From Cyanophyceae cyanobacterium (lineage in GTDB: Bacteria; Cyanobacteriota; Cyanobacteriia; Cyanobacteriales; JBHJGN01): 64,000 bases of DNA. Position numbers and translations under genes: made by a program. The notes beneath the pieces are model-generated. The model was not told the origin of the DNA. It made no database searches and saw only the letters and a program-made list of their open reading frames with translations. The first letter of the stretch is position 1, and each line of letters opens with the position of its first letter. Location: NCBI GenBank assembly GCA_050331735.1, contig JBHJGN010000001.1:1-64000 (forward strand), given 5' to 3'. Of the stretch, positions 8,120 to 19,707 are shown in pieces.

Positions 8120-10798
8120 TTAGATAACGGTAAGGTTTTCCTCCATCATTGCCTGTAGCTCAGCCGGAGGAGCCTCTAGGCTAAGATCGGCGTAGTTCGT
8201 TGGGGCTGCTGACGCTGCGGGGTCGCCTAGATCAGGAAAAGCAGCGTCAGGAGCAACTGTTCCGCCCACCAGCAGCACATCATCTTCATCGGCTAATAAA
8301 CTAGATGCTATCGTCAGCGCTGCTGATGTCCCGGATCCGCTCAAGTCTCCGGCGACATTTTCAAAGAAATTGAGTCTGCCGCGATTATTAGTGCCAAGAA
8401 TAGTAAAGTCGCCGCCAACGGCAGTATCTAAATCACCGTCGCCGTCAACATCGGCAAAGCTGGGTGCCGCATAAAAGCCAACGTCGATCGTATCGAAGGG
8501 ATTGCTGCTGCCAGTCACCTCTGTAAAGGTGCCGCCATCATTGCGATAAAAGCGGGTTTCTCCAAAGGCTTCTCCAATCAACGCATCCGCATCGCCATCG
8601 CCGTCAGCGTCAGCAAAACTGGGGAAGCTAAAGAAGCCAGCATCAACTCCGTTGAGGGGGTTGAGCGTCCCTCCCCGTTGCACAAAGCTGCCGTTCTCGT
8701 TGCGTAAGTAACGAATGGTTCCATCAGCTAAGCCCAAGAAAGCATCTTCATCTCCGTCCCCGTCAATGTTGGCAAACGCAATATTGCTATAGGAGCCAAC
8801 ATCGACTCCATTGAAGGGATTATTCGTCCCAACTTGTTCAACAAACTGGCCATTGTCGTTCCGATAAAAATTGATCGTTCCGGCAAACTCTCCGGAAAAC
8901 AAATCTAGATCCCCATCGGTATCGATATCGACGAAGGTGGGAGTGCTGACGAAACCAACATCAATGCCGTTGAAAGGGTTGCCGTTCCCGGCAACTGGGC
9001 TGAAAGTCCCGTTGGTGTTCCGGAAGAACAAAATGGTGCCATTGATCTCGCCTAAGAAAAGATCGAGGTCGCCATCGCGGTCTAGGTCTGCAAAGGTCGG
9101 TACAGGACTGGAAAGAACATCCACGCCATTAAAGGGATTCGCTGCCCCGGTGCGGGCCGCTAAAACAAGCGGGGTATCTTCTAAAAAATTGATGGTGCCG
9201 TCAGCCGCACCGATGAAAGCATCGGCATCTCCATCGGTATCGATATCGACAAAGCCAGGAGAACTAGCATTGCCAACATTAACCGTAGCAAGTGGATTGA
9301 GAGTTCCTGGCTGAAACGCAAACGTGCCTTGGTTGTTGCGATAGAGGAACGTATTACCCGCAGAATTGCCTACATAAGCATCTAAATCGCCATCGCCATC
9401 AGCATCGGCAAAACTGGGAGAACTCCCAAAGCCGACGTTAACGCCAGCAAGCGGGTTTTCTGCTGCCTGGAGAGTAAAGCTGCCGCCGTCGTTTCGGAAG
9501 TAGCTAACGGTCCCGTTCGCTGCGCCAACAAAAACGTCTTCATCTCCATCCGCATCAACATCGAGAAAGGCTGGAGAGCTGTTCGTGCCAACATCGAAGC
9601 CCAGAAAAGGGTTGAACGTGCCGCGCTGCTGCACAAAAGTGCCGCCGTTGTTTTGGAAATAAAATAGGCTGCCAGCCTGGTTGCCAATCGCTACATCCAG
9701 GTCTCCGTCGGCATCAAGGTCGGCAAAAGCGGGAACGCTGTTGATGCCAACATCAATGCCCAGAAAAGGGTTAGACGTGCCGCTCTGCTGAACGAAAGTG
9801 CCGCCGTTGTTTTGGAAATAAAATAGGCTGCCAGCCTGGTTACCGATCGCTACATCCAGGTCTCCGTCATTATCAAGATCGGCAAAAGCCGGAGCGGTGT
9901 TTGCGGGGAAGTTAGCGTTGAGAGGATTCGACGTTCCGGTTCGTTCAACGTAGTTAGCCAGCCTCAGTCGGTTGAGAAAATCAACGCTGCCAAATCCTCT
10001 AGAACCAACAAAACCATCAACATCACCGTCTTCATCCAGGTCGGCAAAGGCAGGAGCGCTAAATGAGCCAAAATCGATGCCTAAAAAAGGATTGAGGGTG
10101 CCTTGTTGCTGCACAAAGGTGCTGCCGTTGTTGCGGAAATAAAACAGGCTCCCAGCCTGGTTACCAATCACCACGTCAACGTTGCCATCGCCATCAATAT
10201 CGACGAAAGCCGGGGCGCTATAGCCGCCAATATCAATGCCTAAAAAAGGATTGAGAGTGCCGCTCTGCTGGACAAAGGTGCCGCCGTCATTGCGAAAATA
10301 AAACAGGCTTCCCAGACGGTTCCCAATGACCGCATCTCCGTCCCCATCCCCGTCAACGTCCGCAAAGAAGGGTAGGCTATTGTCGCCAACATCAATGCCT
10401 AAAAAAGGATTGAGAGTGCCGCTCTGCTGCGCAAAGGTGCCGCCGTTGTTGCGAAAATAAAACAGGCTTCCTAGACGGTTCCCAATGACCGCATCTAGAT
10501 CTCCATCGCCCTCCACATCGACAAAGGCTGGAGCACTATACCCTCCGAGGCTGTCGTTCGGGTTCGTATCAACGTTAACCGCATTGAGAGGATTGAGGTT
10601 TCCGGTTTGCTCAGTAAAGTTGCCCCCATCGTTGCGATAGAAGAAAATTACTCCATCTCGATTGCCAATAAAAGCATCCAGGTCGCCATCGGCATCAACA
10701 TCGATAAAGGCAGGAACGCTATTGTTGTCTACATCGACAACGTTTAGCGGATTGAGGCTACCGCGTTGCTGTAAAAAGGCGAAGGTCAAATTGCTCAT
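8120..10798 (-). CDS. FG-GAP/VCBS repeat protein, probably Ca-binding beta-propeller, 15 repeats
   Basis: 15 DxDxDGDxD-type motifs in ~53-aa repeats; GAGGAG RBS; no obvious signal peptide. Confidence 0.85.
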   Translation of the reverse strand: MSNLTFAFLQQRGSLNPLNVVDVDNNSVPAFIDVDADGDLDAFIGNRDGVIFFYRNDGGNFTEQTGNLNPLNAVNVDTNPNDSLGGYSAPAFVDVEGDGDLDAVIGNRLGSLFYFRNNGGTFAQQSGTLNPFLGIDVGDNSLPFFADVDGDGDGDAVIGNRLGSLFYFRNDGGTFVQQSGTLNPFLGIDIGGYSAPAFVDIDGDGNVDVVIGNQAGSLFYFRNNGSTFVQQQGTLNPFLGIDFGSFSAPAFADLDEDGDVDGFVGSRGFGSVDFLNRLRLANYVERTGTSNPLNANFPANTAPAFADLDNDGDLDVAIGNQAGSLFYFQNNGGTFVQQSGTSNPFLGIDVGINSVPAFADLDADGDLDVAIGNQAGSLFYFQNNGGTFVQQRGTFNPFLGFDVGTNSSPAFLDVDADGDEDVFVGAANGTVSYFRNDGGSFTLQAAENPLAGVNVGFGSSPSFADADGDGDLDAYVGNSAGNTFLYRNNQGTFAFQPGTLNPLATVNVGNASSPGFVDIDTDGDADAFIGAADGTINFLEDTPLVLAARTGAANPFNGVDVLSSPVPTFADLDRDGDLDLFLGEINGTILFFRNTNGTFSPVAGNGNPFNGIDVGFVSTPTFVDIDTDGDLDLFSGEFAGTINFYRNDNGQFVEQVGTNNPFNGVDVGSYSNIAFANIDGDGDEDAFLGLADGTIRYLRNENGSFVQRGGTLNPLNGVDAGFFSFPSFADADGDGDADALIGEAFGETRFYRNDGGTFTEVTGSSNPFDTIDVGFYAAPSFADVDGDGDLDTAVGGDFTILGTNNRGRLNFFENVAGDLSGSGTSAALTIASSLLADEDDVLLVGGTVAPDAAFPDLGDPAASAAPTNYADLSLEAPPAELQAMMEENLTVI

Positions 10799-11224: not shown

Positions 11225-14200
11225 GTGCAACGACCCGATGTATCTTCTCTCTCGCTTGAGGTAAGCTGTTCCCCGTATTTCCTCTCGTGGCTTCAGGAGC
11301 AGCAGCTTAGTCTTGCCCTCACCACCTATCAAACCAATCGCTTGTTTTTGGTAGGAACGAAACCGGATGGGCAGCTTTCTACTTTTGAGCGCTATTTCGA
11401 GCGAGCGATGGGTCTTTACGGGTCTTCAGAACGACTGTATTTGAGTACGCGCTATCAGCTTTGGCAGTTAGATAATGTACTGCAAACGGGCGAGCAGTAT
11501 CGGGGGTACGATAAGCTCTATGTTCCCCGCATTGGTTATACGACCGGAGATCTGAATATTCATGATGTTGCCGTTTCTGGGGAGCGGCAGCAGGTGGTGT
11601 TTGTCAATACGGCCTATAGCTGCTTAGCTACTTTGAGCGATCGCCACAGCTTTACTCCCCTCTGGCAGCCGTCATTTATTTCTAAGCTCGCTCCGGAAGA
11701 TCGCTGCCATCTCAACGGTGTAGCCATGGCCGACGGTAAGCCGCGCTACGTCACCGCCATCAGTCGCTCAGATGTGGCCTCTGGCTGGCGCGAGCGCCGA
11801 CAGGATGGTGGGGTAGTGGTCGATGTTGAAACCAACGAAGTTGTGCTCAGCGGCCTCTCGATGCCCCATTCACCGCGAGTCTACCAAAATCGTCTCTGGC
11901 TGCTCAATTCCGGAACGGGGGAGTTTGGCTACCTCGATGAGCAGTTTGTGCCCGTAGCCTTTTGTCCGGGGTTTCTGCGCGGACTGGCGTTTCACCACAA
12001 CTTTGCCATTGTCGGTCTTTCTAAACCCCGCGATCGCCACTTCACCGGACTGGCTTTGGATGAGCGGCTGGCGGCCAAAGATGCCGTTCCTCGCTGCGGC
12101 TTGATGGTGATTGACTTAACCACCGGCAACATTGCTCACTGGCTCCAGATGGAAGGAGTCGTTAAGGAACTGTTTGATGTCGTGGTGCTACCGGGAGTGC
12201 GGCTGCCCACCGCTTTAGGGTTTAAAACCGATGAAATCTGCCAGGTAGTAACGTTTGAGCAGTCGGGCGGCGGCAGTCAAGTTGTGCCTGCTACGCCCCC
12301 GCCTCCTCAACCCTCCGCCCAGCCTCGGCTGCTGTTTCGTCAGGGCAAAGCGCTCACGGCGCAGGGAAACCTGGCGGCTGCCGTCACCGCCTTTCAAGAG
12401 GCCATTCGCAGCGCCCCAGACTATCTAGCCGCCTATAACCAGCTAGGCAACGTCTTGCAGGCTCAAGGACGGGTGGAAGAGGCGATCGCCGCCTATCAGC
12501 AGGGATTAGCCGTTAATCCTAACGTCGCCGCGCTCCAGTGCAATCTAGGCAACGCCTGGCAGATGCAGGGACAGGTTGAAGAGGCGATCACCGCCTACCA
12601 ACGCGCCATTGAGCTAGACTCTACCTTTGCTCTGGCCTACTTTAATTTAGGTCAACTGCTGGCGGCGCAGCACCAACCAGATGCCGCTGAACACCACTTT
12701 CAGCAAGCCCTCCGCCACCAGCCCCACGCCGCTGAAATTTATCTCCAGTACGGGAATCTGCTTCAGCAGCAGGGGCGCACTGAAGAGGCGATCGCTCAGT
12801 TTCGAGAGGCAATCGGGCGGCAGCCCAGCGCTGAGGCCTACGTGAGTTTAGGGACGGCGCTTCAAAGTCAGCAGGCATTTGAGCTCGCTCAATCTTGCTA
12901 TCAACGGGCGCTCCAGCTTAAGCCTGACCTGGCTGCTGCCCACTTTAAGCTCGGTTTACTGCAAGACTATCAAAACGACCTCGAGGCCGCGAGAGCGAGC
13001 TACGAGCAGGCTCTCTCTCTCTCTCCCCAGGCGACGGATGTTGTGTACTACTTAAGCAATCTTTATTTAAAGCTCGGCGACTGGGAAGACTACGAAGCCC
13101 GAACGCAAGCGCTCATTCAAGCTACCCACACTCATCTGAGCAGCAACGCCTCCACGGCGCTGCCGCCGCTGACGCTCAACTACTTTCCCGTTCCCCTCTC
13201 TCTGCACGCGGCGGTAGCTCGTCAGCGGGCCACCCTGATTACTCGGCTGATGGCGGCGACTCAAGCCAACTGTCTCTTTCAGGATGCCCCCGTTCTCTCA
13301 GATGGCAAAATCCGGTTAGGCTACCTGTCCCCAGATTTTCGCGAACACGCCGTGGGGATTCTTATTGGCGATCTGTTTCCCCACCACGACCGCGATCGCT
13401 TCGAGGTATATGCCTACAGTCTGCTCGCCTCCGATGATGCCATTGCTCAGAAGATTCAAGGCAGATGCGATCGCTTCATCGACCTGTCTAGCCATTCTCC
13501 GGTCGCCGCCGCTCGCCAAATCCATCGCGATTGTGTTCAAATCTTGATCGACTTGGCAGGCTACACGACCTACTCTCGCCCAGAAATCTTGGCTCTTCAG
13601 CCTGCCCCGGTTCAGTGTCTGTATCTGGGCTACCCAGACACGATGGGAGCCGCTTTTGTGCAGTACCTGATCGCCGACCGCTGGGTTGCACCGCCAGAAA
13701 TTGCGAGCACCTACACCGAAAAAGTGATTTACCTTCCCCATCAGTTCATGGCCTCTGAGCTAGAGATAGCTCCCCCGCTGACAAGACCGGAAGTGGGCTT
13801 ACCGCAAGAGGCGTTTGTGTTTTGCTGCTTTAATGCCCATCACAAAATCGAGCCGACCGTCTTTACGAGCTGGATGAACATTCTCAAGCAGGTTCCCGGT
13901 TCAGTGCTGTGGCTCTCCGCCGGAGCAGATCCCCTAATGAACAACCTCCGGACTCAAGCCGAACAGCGCGGAGTAGCCGCCTCTCGCCTGATTTTTGCCC
14001 CCCAGCTACCGCTCCCCCAATACTTAGCTCGCTGTCAACTTGCCGATCTGTTTCTCGATACCTTTTCCTACAGTGCTGGCTCCACTGCTGTTTGTGCCTT
14101 ATCTGCGGGCTTACCCCTGTTGACGAAGTTAGGAGAAACGAACGCCTCGCGCATGGGAGCCAGCATTTGTGCAGCCGCTGGCTTAGAAGCGATGATTTGT

Positions 14201-14416
14201 TCTAGTGTGCCCGAATACGAGCAGCGAGCCATCGAGCTCGCGACCCAGCCCCACGAACTCGCCTTCCTTCGTCACCACCTCCGCGACCAGAAATCGAGTC
14301 TCCCCCTGTTCAACCCCCAGCAGCACGTTCGACACTTAGAAAAGGCGTTTCTAGAAATGTGGCAGCAGTACATCTCAACGAACAATCAACAATCAACCGT
14401 CAACAAAAAACTTTAA
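11225..14416 (+). CDS. TIGR03032/DUF4915 domain + TPR array + GT41 (OGT/SPINDLY-like) glycosyltransferase fusion
   Basis: N-term PEDRCHLNG, GLSMPHSPR, FCPGFLRGL; about 7-8 TPRs; C-term IRLGYLSPDFREHAVG, ILIDLAGYT, APVQ..YLGYPDTMG, FCCFN..HKI, ADLFLDTFSY. Confidence 0.85.
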   Translation: MQRPDVSSLSLEVSCSPYFLSWLQEQQLSLALTTYQTNRLFLVGTKPDGQLSTFERYFERAMGLYGSSERLYLSTRYQLWQLDNVLQTGEQYRGYDKLYVPRIGYTTGDLNIHDVAVSGERQQVVFVNTAYSCLATLSDRHSFTPLWQPSFISKLAPEDRCHLNGVAMADGKPRYVTAISRSDVASGWRERRQDGGVVVDVETNEVVLSGLSMPHSPRVYQNRLWLLNSGTGEFGYLDEQFVPVAFCPGFLRGLAFHHNFAIVGLSKPRDRHFTGLALDERLAAKDAVPRCGLMVIDLTTGNIAHWLQMEGVVKELFDVVVLPGVRLPTALGFKTDEICQVVTFEQSGGGSQVVPATPPPPQPSAQPRLLFRQGKALTAQGNLAAAVTAFQEAIRSAPDYLAAYNQLGNVLQAQGRVEEAIAAYQQGLAVNPNVAALQCNLGNAWQMQGQVEEAITAYQRAIELDSTFALAYFNLGQLLAAQHQPDAAEHHFQQALRHQPHAAEIYLQYGNLLQQQGRTEEAIAQFREAIGRQPSAEAYVSLGTALQSQQAFELAQSCYQRALQLKPDLAAAHFKLGLLQDYQNDLEAARASYEQALSLSPQATDVVYYLSNLYLKLGDWEDYEARTQALIQATHTHLSSNASTALPPLTLNYFPVPLSLHAAVARQRATLITRLMAATQANCLFQDAPVLSDGKIRLGYLSPDFREHAVGILIGDLFPHHDRDRFEVYAYSLLASDDAIAQKIQGRCDRFIDLSSHSPVAAARQIHRDCVQILIDLAGYTTYSRPEILALQPAPVQCLYLGYPDTMGAAFVQYLIADRWVAPPEIASTYTEKVIYLPHQFMASELEIAPPLTRPEVGLPQEAFVFCCFNAHHKIEPTVFTSWMNILKQVPGSVLWLSAGADPLMNNLRTQAEQRGVAASRLIFAPQLPLPQYLARCQLADLFLDTFSYSAGSTAVCALSAGLPLLTKLGETNASRMGASICAAAGLEAMICSSVPEYEQRAIELATQPHELAFLRHHLRDQKSSLPLFNPQQHVRHLEKAFLEMWQQYISTNNQQSTVNKKL

Positions 14417-14428
14417 TCGGAGTAACTT

Positions 14429-15637
14429 TTACGATCCACTGCTCACCGTGATTCGCGGTGCGGCTAAGCGGTGGGTGTAGGTCACCTGGAAGCGTTCTCC
14501 TAATGAGACGGGGAGCGGCTTCCCTAACGCCCAGACCAGGCTATACCAGTGGTTATCGGGCGGAACCTGGGCCGGATGGGTGGTGAGCCAGTTGTTGGGA
14601 CTAAATTCTACGTCAAAGTAGATGAGTAGCCCGTTAATTGTTCCTGCTGTTTGAGCGATCGCGCTGACGGTATGGGAGAACCCGGTGTTGGTGACGGTGG
14701 CAAAATCTACGTCTGCCAGCAGCAGTGGTTCGCTCAACGTCAGCCACTCCTTTGGTGTATCTGCCCGGACATAGAAGGTATGATCCGAGCGAGCCATCGC
14801 CGCCAGCGCTCTAAAGTCAATGCCGTACCAGGACTGCCAGGTTTTTAGCGTTGGCGCTGTCCAGGTTTTTTGGGCGAGTTTCTCTGGCGGAATGGTAATG
14901 GCGAGTCCCATCACCTGTAGTTTCCCCGGTACAAAGCGAGGCTTAGGCTGGAGCAACCGCTTGCGGGCATCGATGGTTACTTCTAGCGCCCGCTCAGATA
15001 GAGGTTCATCGCCGATCATTTCCGTCACTAGAACATCAGCTCGCTCGGGTAAACTGACCTGTGTAGACCATCCCGGCACTAGCGTGATCCGGTCTGCCAA
15101 TCCGTTGACCTCGAACAGAGCTTGAGCCGACTTCCCAATGCTGCTCGCTTCGATGGCATAAACCTGTTTTGCTCCAGCCTGCGCTGCGGCGATCGCCAAT
15201 ACGCCGGTTCCGGTTCCAATATCAACGACCACATCGCCGGGACGAACCACTGCTTGAATACCGGAGATCAATTGAGATGTCCGCTGGCGGTCATTGAGCA
15301 TGGCAATATGAACGGCAGCAGCATCGTAGCCGAGCGGATCGGCTCTCAGCACCGCTGGCAGTTGCCCGGCCTCTTGCAGAATGCCGACCTGATGCAGCCG
15401 CAGAACGGTACTGGTCAAATTCATCCAGTCTTGAACCCCCTGAACCTGAGCTTTGAGCCGCTCCAGTGCCTCAGAAACTGATGTGGGGTAGGCAAACACC
15501 TCCAGCACAGCTAAAGCATGTTGACCACCGCGATAGCTTCTTCCCGACCAGACAATCTGCACCTGGTTGCTAGCATCAATTTCAATGGTCAGGTTAGGCA
15601 CTCGCTGTAGACGAGTATCAATAGAAAAGTTACTCAT
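14429..15637 (-). CDS. PRMT-like SAM-dependent methyltransferase with RRE/winged-helix-like N-terminus (lasso cluster tailoring enzyme)
   Basis: HIAMLNDRQRT, VVDIGTGTG, YAIEAS, double-E loop (TEMIGDEPLSE), NHW loop. Start set at 15637 because the upstream extension is repeat DNA. Confidence 0.8.
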   Translation of the reverse strand: MSNFSIDTRLQRVPNLTIEIDASNQVQIVWSGRSYRGGQHALAVLEVFAYPTSVSEALERLKAQVQGVQDWMNLTSTVLRLHQVGILQEAGQLPAVLRADPLGYDAAAVHIAMLNDRQRTSQLISGIQAVVRPGDVVVDIGTGTGVLAIAAAQAGAKQVYAIEASSIGKSAQALFEVNGLADRITLVPGWSTQVSLPERADVLVTEMIGDEPLSERALEVTIDARKRLLQPKPRFVPGKLQVMGLAITIPPEKLAQKTWTAPTLKTWQSWYGIDFRALAAMARSDHTFYVRADTPKEWLTLSEPLLLADVDFATVTNTGFSHTVSAIAQTAGTINGLLIYFDVEFSPNNWLTTHPAQVPPDNHWYSLVWALGKPLPVSLGERFQVTYTHRLAAPRITVSSGS

Positions 15638-15639
15638 GA

Positions 15640-15865
15640 CACGACATCCCTCCGGGACGGGGAAGCGGTGCGACCCTGCGCCGCCGGAAGGCGCAAGGGA
15701 ACGCGCACCAAGACAGGGAAAATAGTTCCTCCGGAACGGGGAAAGGGGAAACAACTGCCGCCGTAGGAAGCACACGACGGGGAAAGAACACAGGACTAGG
15801 GAATAGGCTGATTTATTCTCCCTTTCCCCCTTCCCCTTTGCCCTTTTCCCGCGCCTGTGGCGCTA
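15640..15865. repeat. Heptamer/mini-hairpin repeat element overlapping the kinase 3' end
   Basis: CCCTCCGGGAC, GTTCCTCCGGAAC (15725), GGGGAAAGAACACAGG, CCCGCGCCTGTGGCGC. Confidence 0.75.
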
Positions 15866-16832
15866 TGCAAGCGGCGCCTATGATCGTCGCGCAGAGCTTG
15901 TCTAGGCGACCAGCGTCCGCGTGGGGAACGAGCTGCTGTACTGGAATCTGCTTGACTAGGCGGCTGAGGTGCTCAAATTCCTGGGCTCGTAGGGAGCGAT
16001 CCAATAAATAATTAACGTAGGTATTTTTGACAAGAGCCATCAGACTCTCTTGCTGAGAGAGCGGCTTGACAAAGGGAGCTTTTGGGTCGAGAGTGCGGGG
16101 ACTAAATAAATAAATTTGAGCGAGCGGCAGGGGATGCTGTTGGAAGCGATAGCCCGCTTGCGTGAGGTCGAGATAGCGCTTGTCCCAGGTAGGATGGGTG
16201 GGCACAATGCGCGGCAGAGCATCAGGAGATTGGTATAAAGCCTTGACCGATTCTGACCAGAGACGAATGCGCGGATAGGCGGGCTGCACTAGAAAGCGAT
16301 CGCCTTCCTCGATTAACGGCACTACATCATCCGATAGCACCGGATAGCCCAGCTTCGCTAAGGCGGCAGCGGTGGTCGATTTGCCAGCCCCCGCCCGACC
16401 AACCAGCGCCACGGCCTGATTGCCAATGGCGATCGCACTGGCATGCAGACAGGTTATTCGACGCAGGCGCAGCCCCCATCCCAATACAGGACCAAGCAAG
16501 TAAGTCGCTGTGTCTTCTAGGGTTAAATCAGCGGGCCAGTTTGCCCAAATCCGCTGGCCCTGAGCATCAATAATAAATTGGGTTCCGTCCCCGTACTGCA
16601 ACCAGAAAGCCTGGTTTTCTAGAGACATCACCTGCACCACCGGTTTTCCTTCGATCTGAGTCGGGCTGCTATACCACGGCGTACGCTCTTTGTCTACAAC
16701 GCCTGCCAGCCACTGAGGTGATTCTCGCAGCCATACCTGAACTCGATTGAACTTTGACCTTACTTGAGGAATCAGCCCAGGAATTGGTTGATTAGTACAC
16801 AAATCGAGTCCGTAGATCCGATAGCAGGGCAT
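15813..16832 (-). CDS. HPr-kinase-like P-loop kinase of the lasso cluster
   Basis: LHASAI, Walker A GRAGAGKSTT, LSDDV, PAYPRIRLW; start overlaps the precursor stop (TGATG). Confidence 0.85.
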   Translation of the reverse strand: MPCYRIYGLDLCTNQPIPGLIPQVRSKFNRVQVWLRESPQWLAGVVDKERTPWYSSPTQIEGKPVVQVMSLENQAFWLQYGDGTQFIIDAQGQRIWANWPADLTLEDTATYLLGPVLGWGLRLRRITCLHASAIAIGNQAVALVGRAGAGKSTTAAALAKLGYPVLSDDVVPLIEEGDRFLVQPAYPRIRLWSESVKALYQSPDALPRIVPTHPTWDKRYLDLTQAGYRFQQHPLPLAQIYLFSPRTLDPKAPFVKPLSQQESLMALVKNTYVNYLLDRSLRAQEFEHLSRLVKQIPVQQLVPHADAGRLDKLCATIIGAACIAPQAREKGKGEGGKGE

Positions 16833-16984
16833 CAGCCCGTTTTAACGACAACAATACCGCGAAGCACCTCCCCGTCGGGAGTACCTTGGTCGCCCAGGGC
16901 CAAGGTTGATTCTGCGACACTCCCGTACACCGAAAATTGAGGGCTGTGATACGGTTGCTTTGACTGTTGTGATGCGCTCATCAT
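16832..16984 (-). CDS. Lasso peptide precursor (50 aa, not in ORF track): MMSASQQSKQPYHSPQFSVYGSVAESTL|ALGDQGTPDGEVLRGIVVVKTG
   Basis: Hand translation. GGAGG RBS at 16990-16994; leader motif YxxPx[L/F]xxxGxxxxxTx; core starts Ala with Asp at position 9. Confidence 0.9.
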   Translation of the reverse strand: MMSASQQSKQPYHSPQFSVYGSVAESTLALGDQGTPDGEVLRGIVVVKTG

Positions 16985-17049
16985 CCTATCCTCCACCAAT
17001 AAAATCTAATCCATACTACCCGACAGAGAAACTTTAGAGCAATATTTCT

Positions 17050-17440
17050 CCGGAAAGGGAAGGCAGCGAAGCTGCGGGGAAAGGGTAAACTGTCGCGTTC
17101 GCGACGGGGAAAGGGAAAGCTGTCCCTCCGGGACGGGGAAAGGGAAAAGAGGAAACTGTCGCGTTCGCGACGGGGAAAGAACACAGGACCAAGGAATAAG
17201 CTGATACCATTTACCGAAAGTAGTCAGATAGTTCCCAAACGAACCAAGAATGGGAGGTTCAAGGGCAAAGAGCTGCTGTGCTTCCCTTTCCCCTTTACCC
17301 CTTCCCCTTTCCCCCAACTCATCAAGTCTCCTATTACTTGTTCTAATTGGTATGAGTTATTCTTCCCTTCCCCCTTCCCCTTTCCCCCGCGCCGACGGCG
17401 CTTCCCTTTTCCCCGCGCCGACAGCGCTTTCCCTTTACCC
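17050..17440. repeat. Heptamer/mini-hairpin repeat array containing a nested MITE
   Basis: GTCGCGTTCGCGAC x2 (17092, 17158), GTCCCTCCGGGAC (17122), CCCGCGCCGAC[GA]GCGCT x2. Confidence 0.8.
17205..17352. mobile_element. 148-bp MITE-like element with 9-bp imperfect TIRs and TGA target duplication
   Basis: TACCATTTA...TAATTGGTA flanked by TGA on both sides; near-identical inverted copy at 29723-29856; partial copy at 2757. Confidence 0.75.
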
Positions 17441-17441
17441 G

Positions 17442-19214
17442 TCACGCACCGGACATTAGCCAGTAGCCTAAACTGACCGGGCGGAGATTTAGCCAAGCTG
17501 TTGAGGGATCTAAAGACTGGGTGGCTGCTGTTAGTAAATTGATATCTACGTAATCTCTAATCGGCAACTGAGCAAGATGTTGCCAGGGGTTTGGCCCCTG
17601 GTGTAAATGCTGAGCTAGAGGAGAGCCGACCAGCGGCGTTTTCGGACGCTGAAGCACTTCAGGCGGTAGCTTCCCCTTCATCGCGACTCGCAAGAGCTGT
17701 TTGCCAACACACCAAGGCAGCGGCGGCAGTGCCAGCAGGTAGCTTAGTAATCGAAGATCTAGAAAAGGAAACCGCACCTCAATCGGACACAGAGAAACTC
17801 CCGGATCTTGAGATTCAAACAGTGCTGACCAAAGCGGCAGAACCATGCCCTGATAGGCTTTGGCTCGCGGCGCATCCGCGACTGGTTTCTGGGTCACCTG
17901 TTGCCATCGCTCAACTAGGTGTAGACGCCGAGCAAAATCGGTCCTCAGCCAGGGGGGATAGGTAGACGCGGCTTTTCTCCTCCGCCACCAGGCATACACC
18001 CCAGTTCCCCAGCGTGGACGCAGTTTGTGAATGAGCAAACAGCGCAGCACATCAACCGCAACTTGACTGGCTGACCCCATCTTCAGCATCTCGGCAACGG
18101 TCGCATAGGCAAAGGCTTCGTCGCCGCCTTCTCCATAGAGAGCCACGCGGCTATAGCGAGCCACCTGCTGAGACTGTTCCCAACCGCCGAGGGCGAGAGG
18201 ACGATGGTAAGGCTCTTGCCCCTTTAATTCCGGTCGTTCCCATCCCTGGTAGAACTGATAGTCGTCGCAACTCCAGTAATGAATAGGAATGCCAAGGTGT
18301 TGGGCAACTAAGCCTGAATAGTAACGCTCTTGACTAGGAATAAGGCGATCGTAAACAGTGGTAAAAGCCTGGATCTCGGTGGAGCCACTCCCCACTTCCA
18401 CAGCCGTGGCGGCGATCGCCGTTGAATCGAGTCCGCCGCTCATGTAGATGGCTACGCGCTCGGTGTTGAGGCGATCGCCTACTGCCACCGCCATGAGTTC
18501 CTGAAACTGATCAATATAGTCTTGCGATCGCCGGTAGCGAATCGGTTCATAAACGGGCAGTTCCCAGTAGCGCTGCTGCTGAATCTCGGTAGTGACGGAG
18601 AGCGTATGGGCTCTGGGTAAGCGCTGAATATCCGCCCAGACGGTTGTTTCAAGATTGTAGTTCATCTCGAAAAGCAGAAAATCGCCGATGGCCTGCTCGT
18701 TAAGCCGATCAGAAATGAGTGGATGTTGACGCAGACAGCTTAAGGTGTTGCTGAAGATGAAGCAGTGACCGACCAGGGCATAATAAAACAGCTTGACCCC
18801 AAAGCGATCGCGGGCGCAAAACAAACGTTGCTGGCTGCTATCCCAAATTGCAAAGGCAAAATCTCCCATGAGGAACTGAACGCAGCCTTCTCCCCAAACG
18901 AGATAGGCTCTCAAGATTAGCTCGCTGTCGGTTTTTCCCAGTTGCTCAACGCCCAGCTTGTCAGCCAGTTCAGCTCGTCCGTCAAGGCGAGCATCGGCAG
19001 TAATCCACGCCTGTCCGTCTACACTGACAGGTTGTTGCTCATTCGCTGACTTCCAAGTAGTGTGCAGCAGCGCGTGTCCTAAACCCACCGCCTGTTCTAG
19101 CCAAATCTCCTGAGCATCCGGCCCTCGAAAAGCCAGCGATTGAGTCAGACGGTGCAGTAGCTCCCGCTCAACAGGAGATCCATTGAGATGAACAATACCG
19201 ACAATGCCACTCAA
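17442..19214 (-). CDS. Lasso peptide cyclase (asparagine synthetase-like C protein)
   Basis: N-terminus MSGIVG lacks the catalytic Cys of AsnB; RGPD, ARDRFGVK, SGGLDS, GEGGDE, RFPFLD; lies between PqqD and precursor; TTG start. Confidence 0.88.
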   Translation of the reverse strand: MSGIVGIVHLNGSPVERELLHRLTQSLAFRGPDAQEIWLEQAVGLGHALLHTTWKSANEQQPVSVDGQAWITADARLDGRAELADKLGVEQLGKTDSELILRAYLVWGEGCVQFLMGDFAFAIWDSSQQRLFCARDRFGVKLFYYALVGHCFIFSNTLSCLRQHPLISDRLNEQAIGDFLLFEMNYNLETTVWADIQRLPRAHTLSVTTEIQQQRYWELPVYEPIRYRRSQDYIDQFQELMAVAVGDRLNTERVAIYMSGGLDSTAIAATAVEVGSGSTEIQAFTTVYDRLIPSQERYYSGLVAQHLGIPIHYWSCDDYQFYQGWERPELKGQEPYHRPLALGGWEQSQQVARYSRVALYGEGGDEAFAYATVAEMLKMGSASQVAVDVLRCLLIHKLRPRWGTGVYAWWRRRKAASTYPPWLRTDFARRLHLVERWQQVTQKPVADAPRAKAYQGMVLPLWSALFESQDPGVSLCPIEVRFPFLDLRLLSYLLALPPLPWCVGKQLLRVAMKGKLPPEVLQRPKTPLVGSPLAQHLHQGPNPWQHLAQLPIRDYVDINLLTAATQSLDPSTAWLNLRPVSLGYWLMSGA

Positions 19215-19223
19215 AACCTTTCC

Positions 19224-19514
19224 TCAACGCTCAGATGAAGTTCCTGATTGCTCCTCAGTAACGCTCAGTAACCCGTGGTCTACGAGCTTTTGAATCAACT
19301 GCTGTAGGTCTCGACGAAGCTGTTCTGGTTCTACATCGTACTCTGCTAGCAAGGTTTTATAGGCCGCTTCCACTTCTGTTTTTTCAACCAGGGTGGTCCA
19401 CATGCGAGTTCCCACATCGTCTAACCCAAAATACTGCTCGCTAGCCAGATTCAGCAGCACCGATTCACCACCAACATCTTGAATCAAAACCTCTTGCGGC
19501 ACAGAAACTTTCAT
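19224..19514 (-). CDS. PqqD-family RiPP recognition element (lasso B1/E protein)
   Basis: GESVLLNL..EQYFGLDDVGTRMW...EYDVEPEQLRRDL..L...GLL; GAGGAG RBS. Confidence 0.92.
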   Translation of the reverse strand: MKVSVPQEVLIQDVGGESVLLNLASEQYFGLDDVGTRMWTTLVEKTEVEAAYKTLLAEYDVEPEQLRRDLQQLIQKLVDHGLLSVTEEQSGTSSER

Positions 19515-19550
19515 GACCACTCCTCAGTTAACTCGGTAGATTCTATATTA

Positions 19551-19707
19551 AGTCCCTCCGGGACGGGGAAAGGGGAAACTGTTCCTCCGGAACGGGTCAA
19601 GAACACAGGGTTAAGAAACAAGCTGTATAGTTCATCCCCTTCCCCCTTCCCCTTTGTCCTTTTCCCCGCGCCTGTGGCGCTTCCCTTTTCCCGAGCGCGG
19701 AAGCTGC
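19551..19707. repeat. Heptamer/mini-hairpin repeat element
   Basis: GTCCCTCCGGGAC (19552), GTTCCTCCGGAAC (19581), AAGAACACAGG, CCCGCGCCTGTGGCGC. Confidence 0.75.

Follow-up and report, generated by a model that had tools for sequence, protein, structure and literature searches.

A candidate lasso peptide operon of a cyanobacterium containing an HprK-like kinase and an RRE-fused PRMT-fold methyltransferase

Organisation of the locus

The 64,000-nucleotide stretch of cyanobacterial DNA that we analysed (the window) contains a lasso peptide gene set that, judged from the sequence, is far beyond chance. We propose, with a probability of about 0.6 for the explanation as a whole, that the locus is a class II lasso operon of the B1-C-A-K type with an extra tailoring enzyme, in which an RRE-fused, PRMT-fold, SAM-dependent N-methyltransferase would tailor a phosphorylated lasso peptide, the B2 protease being supplied in trans. 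As the first-pass annotation had described, the open reading frame list gave five co-oriented genes, all on the minus strand, for a PqqD-type RiPP recognition element (RRE), an AsnB-like cyclase, a precursor, an HprK-like kinase and a methyltransferase. The features considered below are the following:

19530..19700, strand not assigned: dispersed GC-hairpin/GGGGAAAG repeats upstream of the RRE gene (repeat families D1-D5)
19224..19520, minus strand: B1, PqqD-family RiPP recognition element (PF05402, 64 bits)
17442..19214, minus strand: C, lasso macrolactam cyclase (NF033535, E 3e-109)
17060..17440, strand not assigned: dispersed GC-hairpin/GGGGAAAG repeats in the 442-nt cyclase-precursor gap (repeat families D1-D5)
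16832..16984, minus strand: A, precursor of 50 aa (GGAGGA before the ATG; conserved leader residues)
16901-16984, minus strand: predicted precursor leader, 28 aa, from ATG 16984
16835-16900, minus strand: predicted precursor core, 22 aa, after the leader
16832-16834, minus strand: precursor stop codon, overlapping the kinase start
15813..16832, minus strand: K, HprK-like lasso peptide kinase (TIGR04352 HprK_rel_A, E 3.7e-11)
15640..15870, strand not assigned: dispersed GC-hairpin/GGGGAAAG repeats in the kinase-methyltransferase gap (repeat families D1-D5)
14429..15637, minus strand: methyltransferase, whole gene, 402 aa (ATG preceded by GGAGGG)
15344..15637, minus strand: methyltransferase N-terminal domain, residues 1-98, RRE fold, presumed to bind the leader (AF2 model and structural matches)
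14429..15343, minus strand: methyltransferase catalytic part, residues ~99-402, PRMT fold (profile search and Foldseek)

The reading frames of all five genes were intact and of full length compared with their relatives, and good ribosome-binding sites were found in front of the operon genes. Since a repeat-laden 175-nt spacer with a weak terminator-like hairpin lies between the kinase and the methyltransferase genes, the co-transcription of these two genes is only putative. The locus is incomplete in cis, as it has no B2, exporter, nucleotidyltransferase or second methyltransferase.

The RRE, cyclase and precursor

The RRE gene probably starts at the ATG in position 19514, with AGGAG 5 nt upstream, giving a protein of 96 aa. 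This protein passed the cut-off of PF05402 PqqD (64 bits against 23.4), scored under that of NF033536 lasso_PqqD_Bac (56 bits against 80) and was 56-69% identical to RREs adjoining B2 and cyclase genes in other genomes. The cyclase gene starts with a TTG located 9 nt past the RRE stop codon, so there is no room for a B2 gene between them.

The cyclase contained Asn_synthase and GATase domains (GATase_7 was matched), and its best NCBIfam model was NF033535, 'lasso peptide isopeptide bond-forming cyclase', with 366 bits (cut-off 525, not reached); the asparagine synthase model TIGR01536 scored 240 bits. The N-terminus of the protein, MSGIVG, has Ser where a glutaminase would have its Cys, in agreement with the Cys-less asparagine-synthetase homologue that had been annotated, and the PP-loop SGGLDS was present. 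Homologues of the cyclase were found in loci with an RRE, B2 and a precursor, and it was 43-51% identical to the cyclases of RRE-cyclase-precursor-kinase loci in relatives. The protein falls with the lasso cyclases and not with the other AsnB-like genes of the same genome, to which it is 26-27% identical. This placement, together with the conservation of the precursor at homologous loci, bears out the reading of the locus as a lasso cluster.

In the open reading frame list the precursor begins with a TTG and has 55 aa. Translation from the ATG at 16984, located 6 nt behind GGAGGA, gives the 50 aa proposed before, and the precursor stop codon overlaps the start of the kinase gene as TGATG, the signature on which translational coupling of the kinase had been suggested. 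The leader followed the pattern Y(-17)xxP(-14)xF(-12)...T(-2), with the expected Tyr, Pro and Thr and with Phe at -12, where Leu had been noted. Residues Y12, P15, G21 and T27, corresponding to Y(-17), P(-14), G(-8) and T(-2), were invariant across 13 aligned precursors from homologous loci, showing that the peptide is conserved. Because T(-2) is invariant and Asp recurs at core position 9 with Gly next, the predicted 22-aa core with an Ala1-Asp9 ring was retained. This core (Ala1...Asp9-Gly10) has Gly at position 3, two candidate Thr acceptors (Thr7 and Thr21), Arg14 in an LRG context, a K-T-G C-terminus and no His. The match of the precursor to NF033528 lasso_cyano was weak (20.6 bits, cut-off 33).

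The kinase

The kinase matched HprK_rel_A (TIGR04352, E 3.7e-11) and Hpr_kinase_C (E 7e-5) weakly. Its catalytic residues, H130-G145-G148-G150-K151-S152-D168-D169, have the H-x14-G-x2-G-x-GKS-x15-DD spacing published for BsfK (H148...D187), which is reported to phosphorylate its precursor with the aid of B1 (PMC10368454). The His/Gly-rich, GKS and Asp-Asp motif of lasso kinases is therefore present, as anticipated for an HprK-like enzyme. The protein was 49-52% identical to the kinases of loci L019-L021, L027 and L106, and its Gly/Lys-rich tail is encoded by dispersed repeats. The acceptor sites known from other systems, the C-terminal Ser of the paeninodin type and Ser3 of BsfA, are absent from the window core, so any assignment of the phosphosite is a guess.

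The methyltransferase

The methyltransferase matched PRMT_C (48.5 bits) and PrmA (45.3 bits). In profile searches of the PDB it matched PRMT7 (8e-45), PRMT10 (5e-43) and PRMT1 (~1e-40), the eukaryotic PRMTs overall lying between E 8e-45 and 1e-33 at ~23-28% identity and with TMt up to 0.84, and Foldseek gave PRMT3 (8g2g, E 2.5e-24, TMt 0.80). Motif I reads VVVDIGTGTG, E206-x8-E215 aligns with the PRMT double-E loop and NHW aligns with the THW loop. Both glutamates were nearly invariant in an alignment of 26 homologues, and the THW-loop histidine varies within class A (defined below).

The AF2 model of residues 1-98 (pLDDT 89.7) comprised strands 9-12, 17-20, 26-30 and 33-37 followed by helices 40-47, 54-62 and 68-83. 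Its top Foldseek matches were PqqD (5sxy), TigE, TbiB1, TruD and ThcOx (E 2e-3 to 2e-2, TM 0.55-0.68), and VIA-align gave Z scores of 10.6 for MccB, 10.2 for TigE, 9.3 for MibB, 8.0 for the PbtF RRE, 7.5 for TbiB1 and 7.0 for both PqqD and the lasso B1 6jx3. The match of the same residues to lasso RRE profiles was weak (hhalign E 0.0035, probability 9%). By sequence and modelled fold, the enzyme is thus a true PRMT homologue, as the label PRMT-like had implied, fused to an N-terminal RRE-fold domain, which makes the precursor with its leader still attached the probable substrate. Prediction of the methyltransferase-precursor complex gave weak support, with an ipSAE of 0.33 (best control 0.00), at least 36% of contacts agreeing between runs and a partner pLDDT of at least 34. 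Of 157 solved complexes, 116 attained the ipSAE mark, as did 2 of 215 mismatches, and scores above the mark but not exceeding 0.60 came from 18 of the 157 solved complexes and from both passing mismatches.

Methyltransferase classes and the likely substrate

Related enzymes were divided into class A (RRE-fused, PRMT fold), class B (RRE-less), class C (short, without the double-E loop) and class D (TsaG-like). Class A keeps both double-E glutamates, and these are replaced in classes C and D. Class D, which has D..M instead of E..E (L045, L053 and L061), is nested within the class-A clade, and its genes occupy the TsaG position in thioamitide-like clusters. TsaG is reported to bis-N-methylate His in thioamitides (PMC8153245), which suggests that this methyltransferase clade tailors cationic RiPP side chains. 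The orthology of L045 and L061 to TsaG was taken from synteny. The thioamitide context (YcaO, TfuA and flavoprotein decarboxylase) was not found in the window.

Each of the 13 distinct cores that accompany class A contained at least one Arg, compared with 7 of the 20 that accompany class C (Fisher p 1.6e-4, kinship ignored), and Arg14 is thus the best guess for the methylation site that these sequences offer. The class-A-paired cores were longer (mean 25.5 residues against 18.6 for class C), and the position of Arg varied among them. In a looser listing, RG or GR was found in 7 of 15 distinct class-A cores, including the LRG of the window.

Distribution in other genomes

A lasso gene was found near the methyltransferase gene in 17 of 50 class-A loci, all but one of these 17 also containing the kinase (16 loci), compared with 4 of 59 loci of class B. 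Class A is not confined to lasso clusters, because tblastn showed no lasso gene in 33 of the 50 loci, 12 of them with 7-8 kb on both sides. Locus L027, from an acidobacterial MAG (Pyrinomonadaceae), reads RRE-B2-cyclase-precursor-kinase-methyltransferase (class A), with the shared genes in the order of the window. It unites all nine genes, namely the five of the window, B2, the exporter, the nucleotidyltransferase and the second methyltransferase; the five shared proteins were 43-56% identical and B2 was 39% identical. Class-A genes also adjoin lasso genes in MAGs labelled Gemmatimonadales, Gammaproteobacteria, Anaerolineae and Myxococcota.

The pairing of kinase and PRMT-like methyltransferase, which the first-pass annotation called unusual, therefore recurs across many phyla. 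Its other statement, that no characterised lasso peptide with this pair was known, agrees with the literature searched, reviews included, in which we found none, so that the pairing is widespread and its chemical product seems to be undescribed. The locus is incomplete and the Arg methylation is predicted; we regard the locus as a good genome-mining lead instead of the new system for which it had been put forward as the best candidate.

Genes in trans and dispersed repeats

The open reading frame list showed no B2 in the window, and neither an ABC exporter nor a nucleotidyltransferase was found in cis. The sole B2 of the genome lies at a contig end (C80:360-803), scores above the curated cut-off of NF033537 (99.5 bits) and has the Cys/His/Asp core motifs. 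Its nearest relatives (57% and 55% identity) adjoin the RREs closest to that of the window (69% and 68%). A class C methyltransferase (short, PRMT fold), an ABC exporter and an NTP_transf_5 nucleotidyltransferase are encoded at C20:106221-110529, at a contig end. Since the genome was assembled from a metagenome and these genes lie on contigs other than that of the window, their placement may be due to a binning or assembly error. The core of the repeats that lie between the genes, GGGACGGGGAAAG, had 96 copies in the genome.

Proposed pathway and alternative explanations

From the gene content, families, motifs, folds, synteny and Arg correlation we infer the following chemistry, modified residues, order of steps and use of genes in trans. 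The stand-alone RRE and, independently of it, the RRE domain of the methyltransferase would bind the YxxPxF...T(-2) leader of the 50-aa precursor. With the leader still on, the kinase would phosphorylate a Thr, Thr21 in the recurrent C-terminal K-T-small motif being favoured and Thr7 the alternative, and the methyltransferase would methylate the guanidino group of Arg14. The B2 cysteine protease of contig C80 would then cut off the leader in trans, and the cyclase would link Ala1 to Asp9, giving a 22-residue lasso. Three proteins encoded on C20, an ABC transporter, an NTP_transf_5 nucleotidyltransferase and the short PRMT-fold methyltransferase, may take care of export and of whatever else is added to the phosphate. 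A bolder extension, which we hold only tentatively and at somewhat less than even odds, is that the RRE-fused class-A enzymes are the first bacterial PRMTs dedicated to ribosomal peptides and the product of this operon the first Arg-N-methylated, and also phosphorylated, lasso peptide, that a switch from E-x8-E to Asp/Met inside a single clade changed the target from Arg in lasso peptides to His in thioamitides, and that a dispersed regulon of this genome provides B2, exporter, nucleotidyltransferase and a second methyltransferase from other loci.

The enzyme could belong to the pathway and methylate, in place of Arg, Lys20, the phosphate that the kinase adds, or a group of the backbone or of a terminus. 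The closest functionally studied relatives, of the TsaG type by inferred orthology, methylate His, and PrmA, which the window enzyme also matched, methylates Lys and alpha-amino groups. The kinase in nearly all lasso-linked class-A loci would fit a phosphate-dependent step, and related cores repeatedly have K-T close to the C-terminus; however, this motif is also found in L021, whose kinase gene has no methyltransferase gene behind it. Lys is missing from 5 of the 13 class-A cores (present in 8) and His from 12 (present in 1), whereas Arg is in every one, and class C and the His-directed class D have other residues in place of the guanidinium-binding glutamates retained by class A, so we consider a different target unlikely. 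A mere neighbour with an unrelated cellular substrate seems very improbable: the hairpin-containing gap in front of the gene and the 12 well-flanked class-A loci without a lasso gene would agree with it, but the enzyme carries an RRE-fold domain, the gene order is repeated in L027, lasso genes lie beside class A in four further MAG groups, and class A is enriched near lasso genes relative to class B.

A decaying or silent remnant, invaded by repeats and making no mature lasso peptide in this organism after loss of B2, exporter and nucleotidyltransferase, is also rather unlikely, slightly more so than a different target. In its favour, all three genes are missing in cis, a repeat of ~96 genomic copies occupies all intergenic gaps, a tnpB-like IS element directly borders the B2 locus, and the sequence of C20 breaks off 154 nt upstream of the methyltransferase gene found there. 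On the other hand, the five frames are intact with good ribosome-binding sites, elsewhere in the genome there is a complete B2 that scores above the curated cut-off, the relatives G028 and G040 likewise have B2 on a contig different from that of the lasso cluster, and the lasso peptide pseudomycoidin, going by the title of its report (PMC6993621), is made without the leader peptidase.

Comparison with known systems

Our preferred reading, an RRE-fused N-methyltransferase acting on a phosphorylated lasso peptide, places the locus near the phosphorylated lasso clusters (paeninodin PadeK/ThcoK, SyanK, pseudomycoidin PsmK/PsmN and Bradymonas sediminis bsf/BsfK). As far as the available parts of the reports go, it shares with them the split B1/B2, the AsnB-like cyclase, the YxxPxL...(-2) leader and an HprK-like kinase with the H/G/G/GKS/DD motif that acts on the linear precursor (PMC9266682, PMC8498205, PMC10368454). 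The C-A-K order is of the firmicute type (PMC5067487), and an NTP_transf_5 protein and an ABC exporter are present in this genome. In contrast to these clusters, the operon has no B2, exporter or nucleotidyltransferase of its own and the core lacks the C-terminal Ser and Ser3, so the phosphosite must differ from that of the paeninodin/Bsf type. None of these clusters is described with a PRMT-fold methyltransferase in the portions of the literature available, whereas the window operon has one.

The actinobacterial proteins of L045 and L061 were 36% identical to the window enzyme over residues 7-389, the RRE-like domain included. Their genes lie between Flavoprotein and YcaO-TfuA-C1 peptidase genes, beside APH genes, which is the tsaG position in the published text available (PMC8153245). 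These homologues nest in the clade of the window enzyme, and TsaG/TvaG and the window enzyme are both PF06325-type RiPP N-methyltransferases, but the two PRMT glutamates kept by the window enzyme are Asp and Met in the TsaG-like members, the window core lacks His, and the products belong to different RiPP classes. With eukaryotic PRMT1, 3, 6, 7 and CARM1 the enzyme shares fold, sequence, motif I, the double-E loop, a THW-like loop and the PRMT_C beta-barrel/oligomerisation subdomain; it differs in being bacterial, RRE-fused and encoded in a RiPP operon, and its substrate would be a 50-aa precursor and not proteins with GAR motifs.

The lasso methyltransferases StspM/LasF and TceM/LihM are also SAM-dependent tailoring enzymes, and StspM uses the linear precursor, according to the part of the literature consulted. 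They belong to families unrelated to that of the window enzyme; StspM/LasF carry out C-terminal carboxyl O-methylation and TceM/LihM a PIMT-type Asp methylation leading to aspartimide, both being O-methylations, whereas the PRMT fold and the cation-binding loop point to N-methylation here. Side-chain N-methylation of Arg or Lys is absent from the ~10 secondary lasso modifications in the available parts of reviews up to June 2026.

Lasso peptides are prized as antibiotic and peptide-engineering scaffolds. Mining rules that demand B2 in cis would miss clusters with a dispersed layout such as this one, in which a core operon is combined with B2 in trans and with export and tailoring genes elsewhere. 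The contrast between E/E and the TsaG-like D/M suggests a rule, open to testing, by which specificity for Arg could be told from that for His. A leader-guided PRMT, if true, would provide a tractable bacterial model of PRMT substrate recognition and would represent a new lasso modification, giving a fixed, bulkier cationic plug residue.

Gene content of the operon

Five ORFs, all with the same orientation, were found in the ORF list of the window at 14429-19520 of the minus strand, as follows:

19224-19520, minus strand: B1, PqqD protein (RRE) of 96-98 aa, ATG at 19514 preceded by AGGAG
17442-19214, minus strand: C, AsnB homologue (cyclase) of 590 aa, TTG start
16832 (end) to 16984 (ATG), minus strand: A, small precursor ORF, GGAGGA 6 nt before the ATG
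15813-16832, minus strand: K, P-loop protein (kinase) of 339 aa, start overlapping the precursor stop (TGATG)
14429 (end) to 15637 (ATG), minus strand: methyltransferase, ATG preceded by GGAGGG

This list and the family matches confirmed the five co-oriented genes of the first-pass annotation, as well as its 50-aa precursor and the coupling of the kinase to it. B1 matched the PqqD family of Pfam with 64 bits (cut-off 23.4). The cyclase contained Asn_synthase and GATase domains (Pfam/NCBIfam), and its top NCBIfam model was NF033535, 'lasso peptide isopeptide bond-forming cyclase' (E 3e-109, 366 bits, below the strict cut-off of 525), compared with 240 bits for the asparagine synthase model TIGR01536. 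Its N-terminus, MSGIVG, has Ser in place of the glutaminase Cys of AsnB, and the PP-loop SGGLDS is retained. The precursor matched NF033528 ('lasso_cyano') weakly (20.6 bits, cut-off 33), the kinase matched HprK_rel_A and Hpr_kinase_C, both weakly, and the methyltransferase, whose N-terminus from ATG 15637 agrees with its homologues, matched PRMT_C (48.5 bits) and PrmA (45.3 bits).

Between the RRE stop and the start of the cyclase lie 9 nt, and between the kinase and methyltransferase genes 175 nt. GC-hairpin/GGGGAAAG repeats occupy all three intergenic gaps of the operon (15640-15870, 17060-17440 and 19530-19700); the repeat core GGGACGGGGAAAG has 96 copies genome-wide, and one repeat copy encodes the Gly/Lys-rich C-terminal tail of the kinase (GKGEGGKGE). 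A scan for sigma-70-like promoters gave 0 sites vs 3.2 expected, and terminator-like hairpins numbered 12 vs 5.4 expected, an excess due to the dispersed repeats, which make up most of them.

Convergent with the methyltransferase gene lies a gene (11225-14416, plus strand) for a 1063-aa protein in which a TIGR03032/DUF4915 domain is fused to TPR repeats and to a GT41 (O-GlcNAc-transferase-like) domain; its membership of the cluster is not evident. Further on, an 892-aa protein (8120-10798, minus strand) has many tandem repeats of about 55-60 residues with Asp-Gly-rich motifs (VDxDGDGDxD...FYRNxGG), which we take to resemble FG-GAP/VCBS repeats.

Cyclase, precursor and core peptide

Relatives of the cyclase at E <= 1e-40 were found in 11 of the 41 genomes from the window's order (its own genome counted); one of the fetched cyclase loci (L007) was a 2.3-kb fragment. 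The order RRE-cyclase-precursor-kinase recurred in four loci of three genomes (L019, L020, L021 and L022), with identities to the window of 40-49% for the cyclase and 37-53% for the kinase. Tyr, Pro, Gly and Thr were invariant across 13 aligned precursors from cyanobacterial, acidobacterial and other loci, corresponding to Y(-17), P(-14), G(-8) and T(-2) of the window leader, and Asp at core position 9 followed by Gly was recurrent among them. The invariant residues match the lasso leader code given in PMC10368454. Leader code and recurrent Asp9-Gly together indicate a core of 22 residues, from Ala1 to Gly22, as proposed in the first-pass annotation, with Asp9 as the likely macrolactam acceptor.

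An ordinary AsnB in place of a cyclase was ruled out, the other AsnB-like genes of the genome being only 26-27% identical to it. The lasso assignment thus withstood grouping with AsnB, and likewise the question of whether the peptide ORF is conserved, since 13 precursors align with four invariant residues. The gene set of the window is a genuine lasso operon.

Remaining parts in the genome

According to the ORF list of the window, the operon has no leader peptidase (B2), exporter or nucleotidyltransferase gene. A B2 hidden in the window was ruled out by the lack of such an ORF, the short RRE-cyclase gap and the position of the sole NF033537/PF13471 match of the genome on another contig, C80. 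This single B2 (C80:360-803, NF033537 99.5 bits) begins 22 nt past the stop of leuA; C80:1-2241 (locus L001) contains leuA, B2, a 71-aa ORF and, at the contig start, a tnpB-like (IS200/605-type) gene. The best relatives of the C80 B2 (57% in genome G025 and 55% in G002) each lie between an RRE and a cyclase gene, and these neighbouring RREs are the closest to that of the window (69% and 68%); judged by sequence, a common origin of the C80 B2 and the window operon would fit. Another relative, G018, has the order leuA-RRE-B2, and in G028 and G040 the B2 is likewise on a different contig from the cluster.

The end of contig C20 carries the tail of a kinase-type lasso cluster:

C20:106221-110529 (locus L198, 6221-10529), minus strand: co-oriented genes of a class-C methyltransferase, an ABC exporter and an NTP_transf_5 nucleotidyltransferase

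The methyltransferase (373 aa) is 51% identical to those of L027 and L020, the exporter has 596 aa, and the NTP_transf_5 protein has 407 aa (223.6 bits). The contig stops 154 nt upstream of the methyltransferase gene, and this end had no k-mer overlap with any contig end of the genome. The starts of C80 and C48 overlap by 44 nt inside the tnpB-like gene, a multi-copy element. The best synteny match was L027, from a Pyrinomonadaceae MAG, with the order RRE-B2-cyclase-precursor-kinase-class-A methyltransferase-gap-class-C methyltransferase-ABC-nucleotidyltransferase and identities to proteins of the window's genome of 56, 39, 43, 49, 50, 51, 41 and 34%. With the window operon, the C80 B2 and the C20 genes, the genome has all nine parts of the L027 type, in three places. 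This dispersed layout may be an effect of assembly or binning, which is possible because the genome is metagenome-assembled (99 contigs, 99.98% complete, 0.52% contamination).

Fold of the methyltransferase

A profile of 26 homologues of the methyltransferase (METHYLTRANSFERASE) matched the solved PRMTs PRMT7 (8e-45), plant PRMT10 (5e-43) and PRMT1/PRMT8 (about 1e-40), and the AlphaFold model (pLDDT 88.7) matched PRMT3, PRMT6, PRMT7 and CARM1 (E about 1e-24, TMt <=0.84). In the HMMER alignment, the S-E-x8-E motif of the family coincided with the double-E loop of PRMTs, and N-H-W with their THW loop; E206 and E215 were each conserved in 90% or more of the 26 sequences.

Residues 1-98 make up a domain of their own, which folded alone with pLDDT 89.7 into four strands and three helices. 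Its top Foldseek matches were PqqD (5sxy), TigE, the lasso B1 TbiB1 with leader, TruD/LynD, ThcOx, MccB and PbtF-RRE (E 2e-3 to 9e-2, TM 0.54-0.68), and its VIA-align Z scores were 10.6 for MccB, 10.2 for TigE, 9.3 for MibB, 8.0 for the PbtF RRE, 7.8 for NisB, 7.5 for TbiB1, 7.0 for PqqD and 7.0 for the lasso B1 6jx3. As nearly all of the top structural matches are RiPP leader-binding domains, we call this predicted domain an RRE fold, with putative leader binding; comparison with 14 lasso RREs by hhalign was weak (E 0.0035, probability 9%), so that the assignment is based on structure comparison. The predicted complex of methyltransferase and precursor gave an ipSAE of 0.33 vs 0.00 for the best control, with contact agreement between runs of at least 36% and partner pLDDT of at least 34. 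Of the solved complexes, 116 of 157 reach the ipSAE mark, as do 2 of 215 mismatches, and scores <=0.60 belong to only 18 of the 157 and to both mismatches that passed; the prediction thus weakly favours the pairing.

Classes and distribution of the methyltransferases

Among 8000 scored candidates, 1165 relatives of the methyltransferase were found at E <= 1e-10, many of about 404 aa and about 50% identical, spanning many phyla. We classed 160 loci (80 genome loci, 79 metagenome loci and L020) by whether the N-terminal domain is present and by which residues occupy the two double-E positions, and scored nearby lasso genes (RRE, B2, cyclase, kinase) by tblastn.

Table. Classes of methyltransferase loci and lasso genes nearby
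Class A (RRE, E/E; window's type): 50 loci, 17 with a lasso gene nearby, 16 with kinase
Class A? (doubtful): 6 loci, 0 with a lasso gene
Class B (E/E, RRE absent): 59 loci, lasso genes nearby in 4
Class C (no N-terminal RRE, Asp first, no second Glu): 30 loci, 23 with a lasso gene, 20 with kinase
Class D (RRE, Asp/Met): 4 loci, 0 with lasso genes
Unclassifiable fragments: 11 loci

By tblastn, 33 class-A loci had no lasso match; many of them are on contigs with <3 kb of flank, and 12 have 7-8 kb on both sides, which indicates that class A is not confined to lasso clusters. Nine of these 12 (L037-L039, L041, L042, L044 and L046-L048) are labelled Actinomycetes, Acidimicrobiales/Acidimicrobiaceae, Solirubrobacterales/Solirubrobacteraceae or Thermoleophilia, and a tenth, the metagenome contig L132, has no label and stands next to them in the tree. 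The loci L037-L044 and L046-L048, from MAGs with such labels, form a class-A subclade, with RRE and double-E, of 33-38% identity, and lasso genes were found in 0 of these 11 within flanks that span 7-8 kb to either side, except at L040, where one side has 2 kb.

At L109, a class-A gene follows ABC and NTP_transf_5 genes as the tail of a kinase-type cluster. Three lasso clusters (L027, L106 and L036) contain an RRE-fused class-A enzyme with double-E together with a short class-C enzyme, suggesting that the two probably do different jobs on one peptide. In L138 and L139, class-B enzymes, which keep the double-E and have no N-terminal RRE, are located between the lasso RRE and B2, which looks like one more case of the PRMT fold being recruited independently to lasso clusters. 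The cores of class-C2 loci, which belong to one clade of short methyltransferases (L063, L166, L172, L177-L179, L182 and others), often have Cys-Leu or a Met-rich tail at their end, a hint of some recognition or modification motif at the C-terminus. The closest methyltransferase of the genome collection (52%) is at a contig end of Plectonema cf. radiosum LEGE 06105 (L026, 148-6955); after it come genes for an ISL3 transposase and a flavin amine oxidase, and a lasso-like precursor ORF with YEKPKL...TTL and an Arg-rich core of 20 aa.

Homologues from Nonomuraea (L045) and Streptosporangium (L061), 36% identical over residues 7-389, lie between a Flavoprotein gene and YcaO-TfuA-C1 peptidase genes, with APH genes adjoining. 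This is the order tsaF-tsaG-tsaH-tsaI...tsaK reported in PMC8153245, where a deletion showed that bis-N-methylation of thiostreptamide S4 at His12 requires TsaG (PF06325). From synteny, we infer that the two enzymes are TsaG orthologues. Class D has Asp and Met at the positions where class A, the type of the window, has two glutamates; in a FastTree tree of the catalytic domain (141 sequences, midpoint root, read by topology alone) class-D enzymes nest inside the class-A clade, and class C forms two other clades.

Candidate modification sites

Cores were delimited eight residues past the Gly of the YG motif, with T or V at -2, by an expression demanding Y or W at the first leader position; no class-A row was removed by hand. 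This left out of class A the F-start precursor of L031, whose core has Arg, and an F-start match of L030, read as spurious, as were the second L086, third L091 and second L179 matches of a looser listing, left out of class C. The identical cores of L134 and L135 were counted once. Arg was present in all 13 distinct class-A cores and in 7/20 class-C cores (Fisher p 1.6e-4, uncorrected for kinship); Lys was present in 8/13 class-A and 16/20 class-C cores, and His in 1/13 class-A cores. Class-A cores were longer (mean 25.5 vs 18.6 residues), and at the Arg frequency of class C and with the core lengths of class A, 13/13 would arise with a probability of 3.6e-4, also uncorrected for kinship. RG or GR occurred in 7 of the 15 distinct class-A cores of the looser listing, including L-R-G of the window. 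The Arg correlation and the kept guanidinium-binding loop make Arg14 the best candidate for the methylated residue. Lys20 or another residue may be the acceptor instead of Arg14.

The kinase has the motif residues H130-G145-G148-G150-K151-S152-D168-D169, with spacing identical to that of BsfK, the kinase of the bsf lasso cluster, and earlier lasso kinases (H148-G163-G166-G168-K169-S170-D186-D187, in PMC10368454). According to PMC9266682, paeninodin-type kinases phosphorylate the C-terminal Ser of the linear precursor, and in PMC10368454 BsfK acts on the linear precursor BsfA at Ser3, accelerated by B1; neither acceptor Ser is present in the window core. Among precursors with kinases 43-52% identical to that of the window, a Lys-Thr pair in the last seven core residues was found in the window, L020, L021, L027, L078 and L088, and was missing in L019. 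On this recurrence, Thr21 is favoured as the candidate phosphosite, with Thr7 as the alternative.

Relation to known lasso modifications

The consulted portions of three reviews (PMC9266682, 2022; PMC8498205, 2021; PMC13352647, June 2026) describe C-terminal O-methylation, PIMT-type Asp methylation, phosphorylation, glycosylation, acetylation, hydroxylation, epimerisation, citrullination, prenylation and a second isopeptide bond, and N-methylation of Arg or Lys is absent from the modifications in these portions. Full-text literature searches for 'lasso peptide' with arginine methylation or methyltransferase returned only unrelated work, and a further search gave papers on PRMT and ADMA alone, although tables or supplements of earlier surveys may mention the gene. 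The operon, put forward at first as a candidate for a new system, is not categorically new: it belongs to a widespread subfamily which pairs a peptide kinase with PRMT-fold methyltransferases and is apparently uncharacterised. What the window contributes to this subfamily is a clean class-A enzyme, with its double-E loop intact and an RRE at the N-terminus, together with the Arg correlation, the connection to TsaG and a dispersed gene layout; the operon is a worthwhile target for reconstitution.
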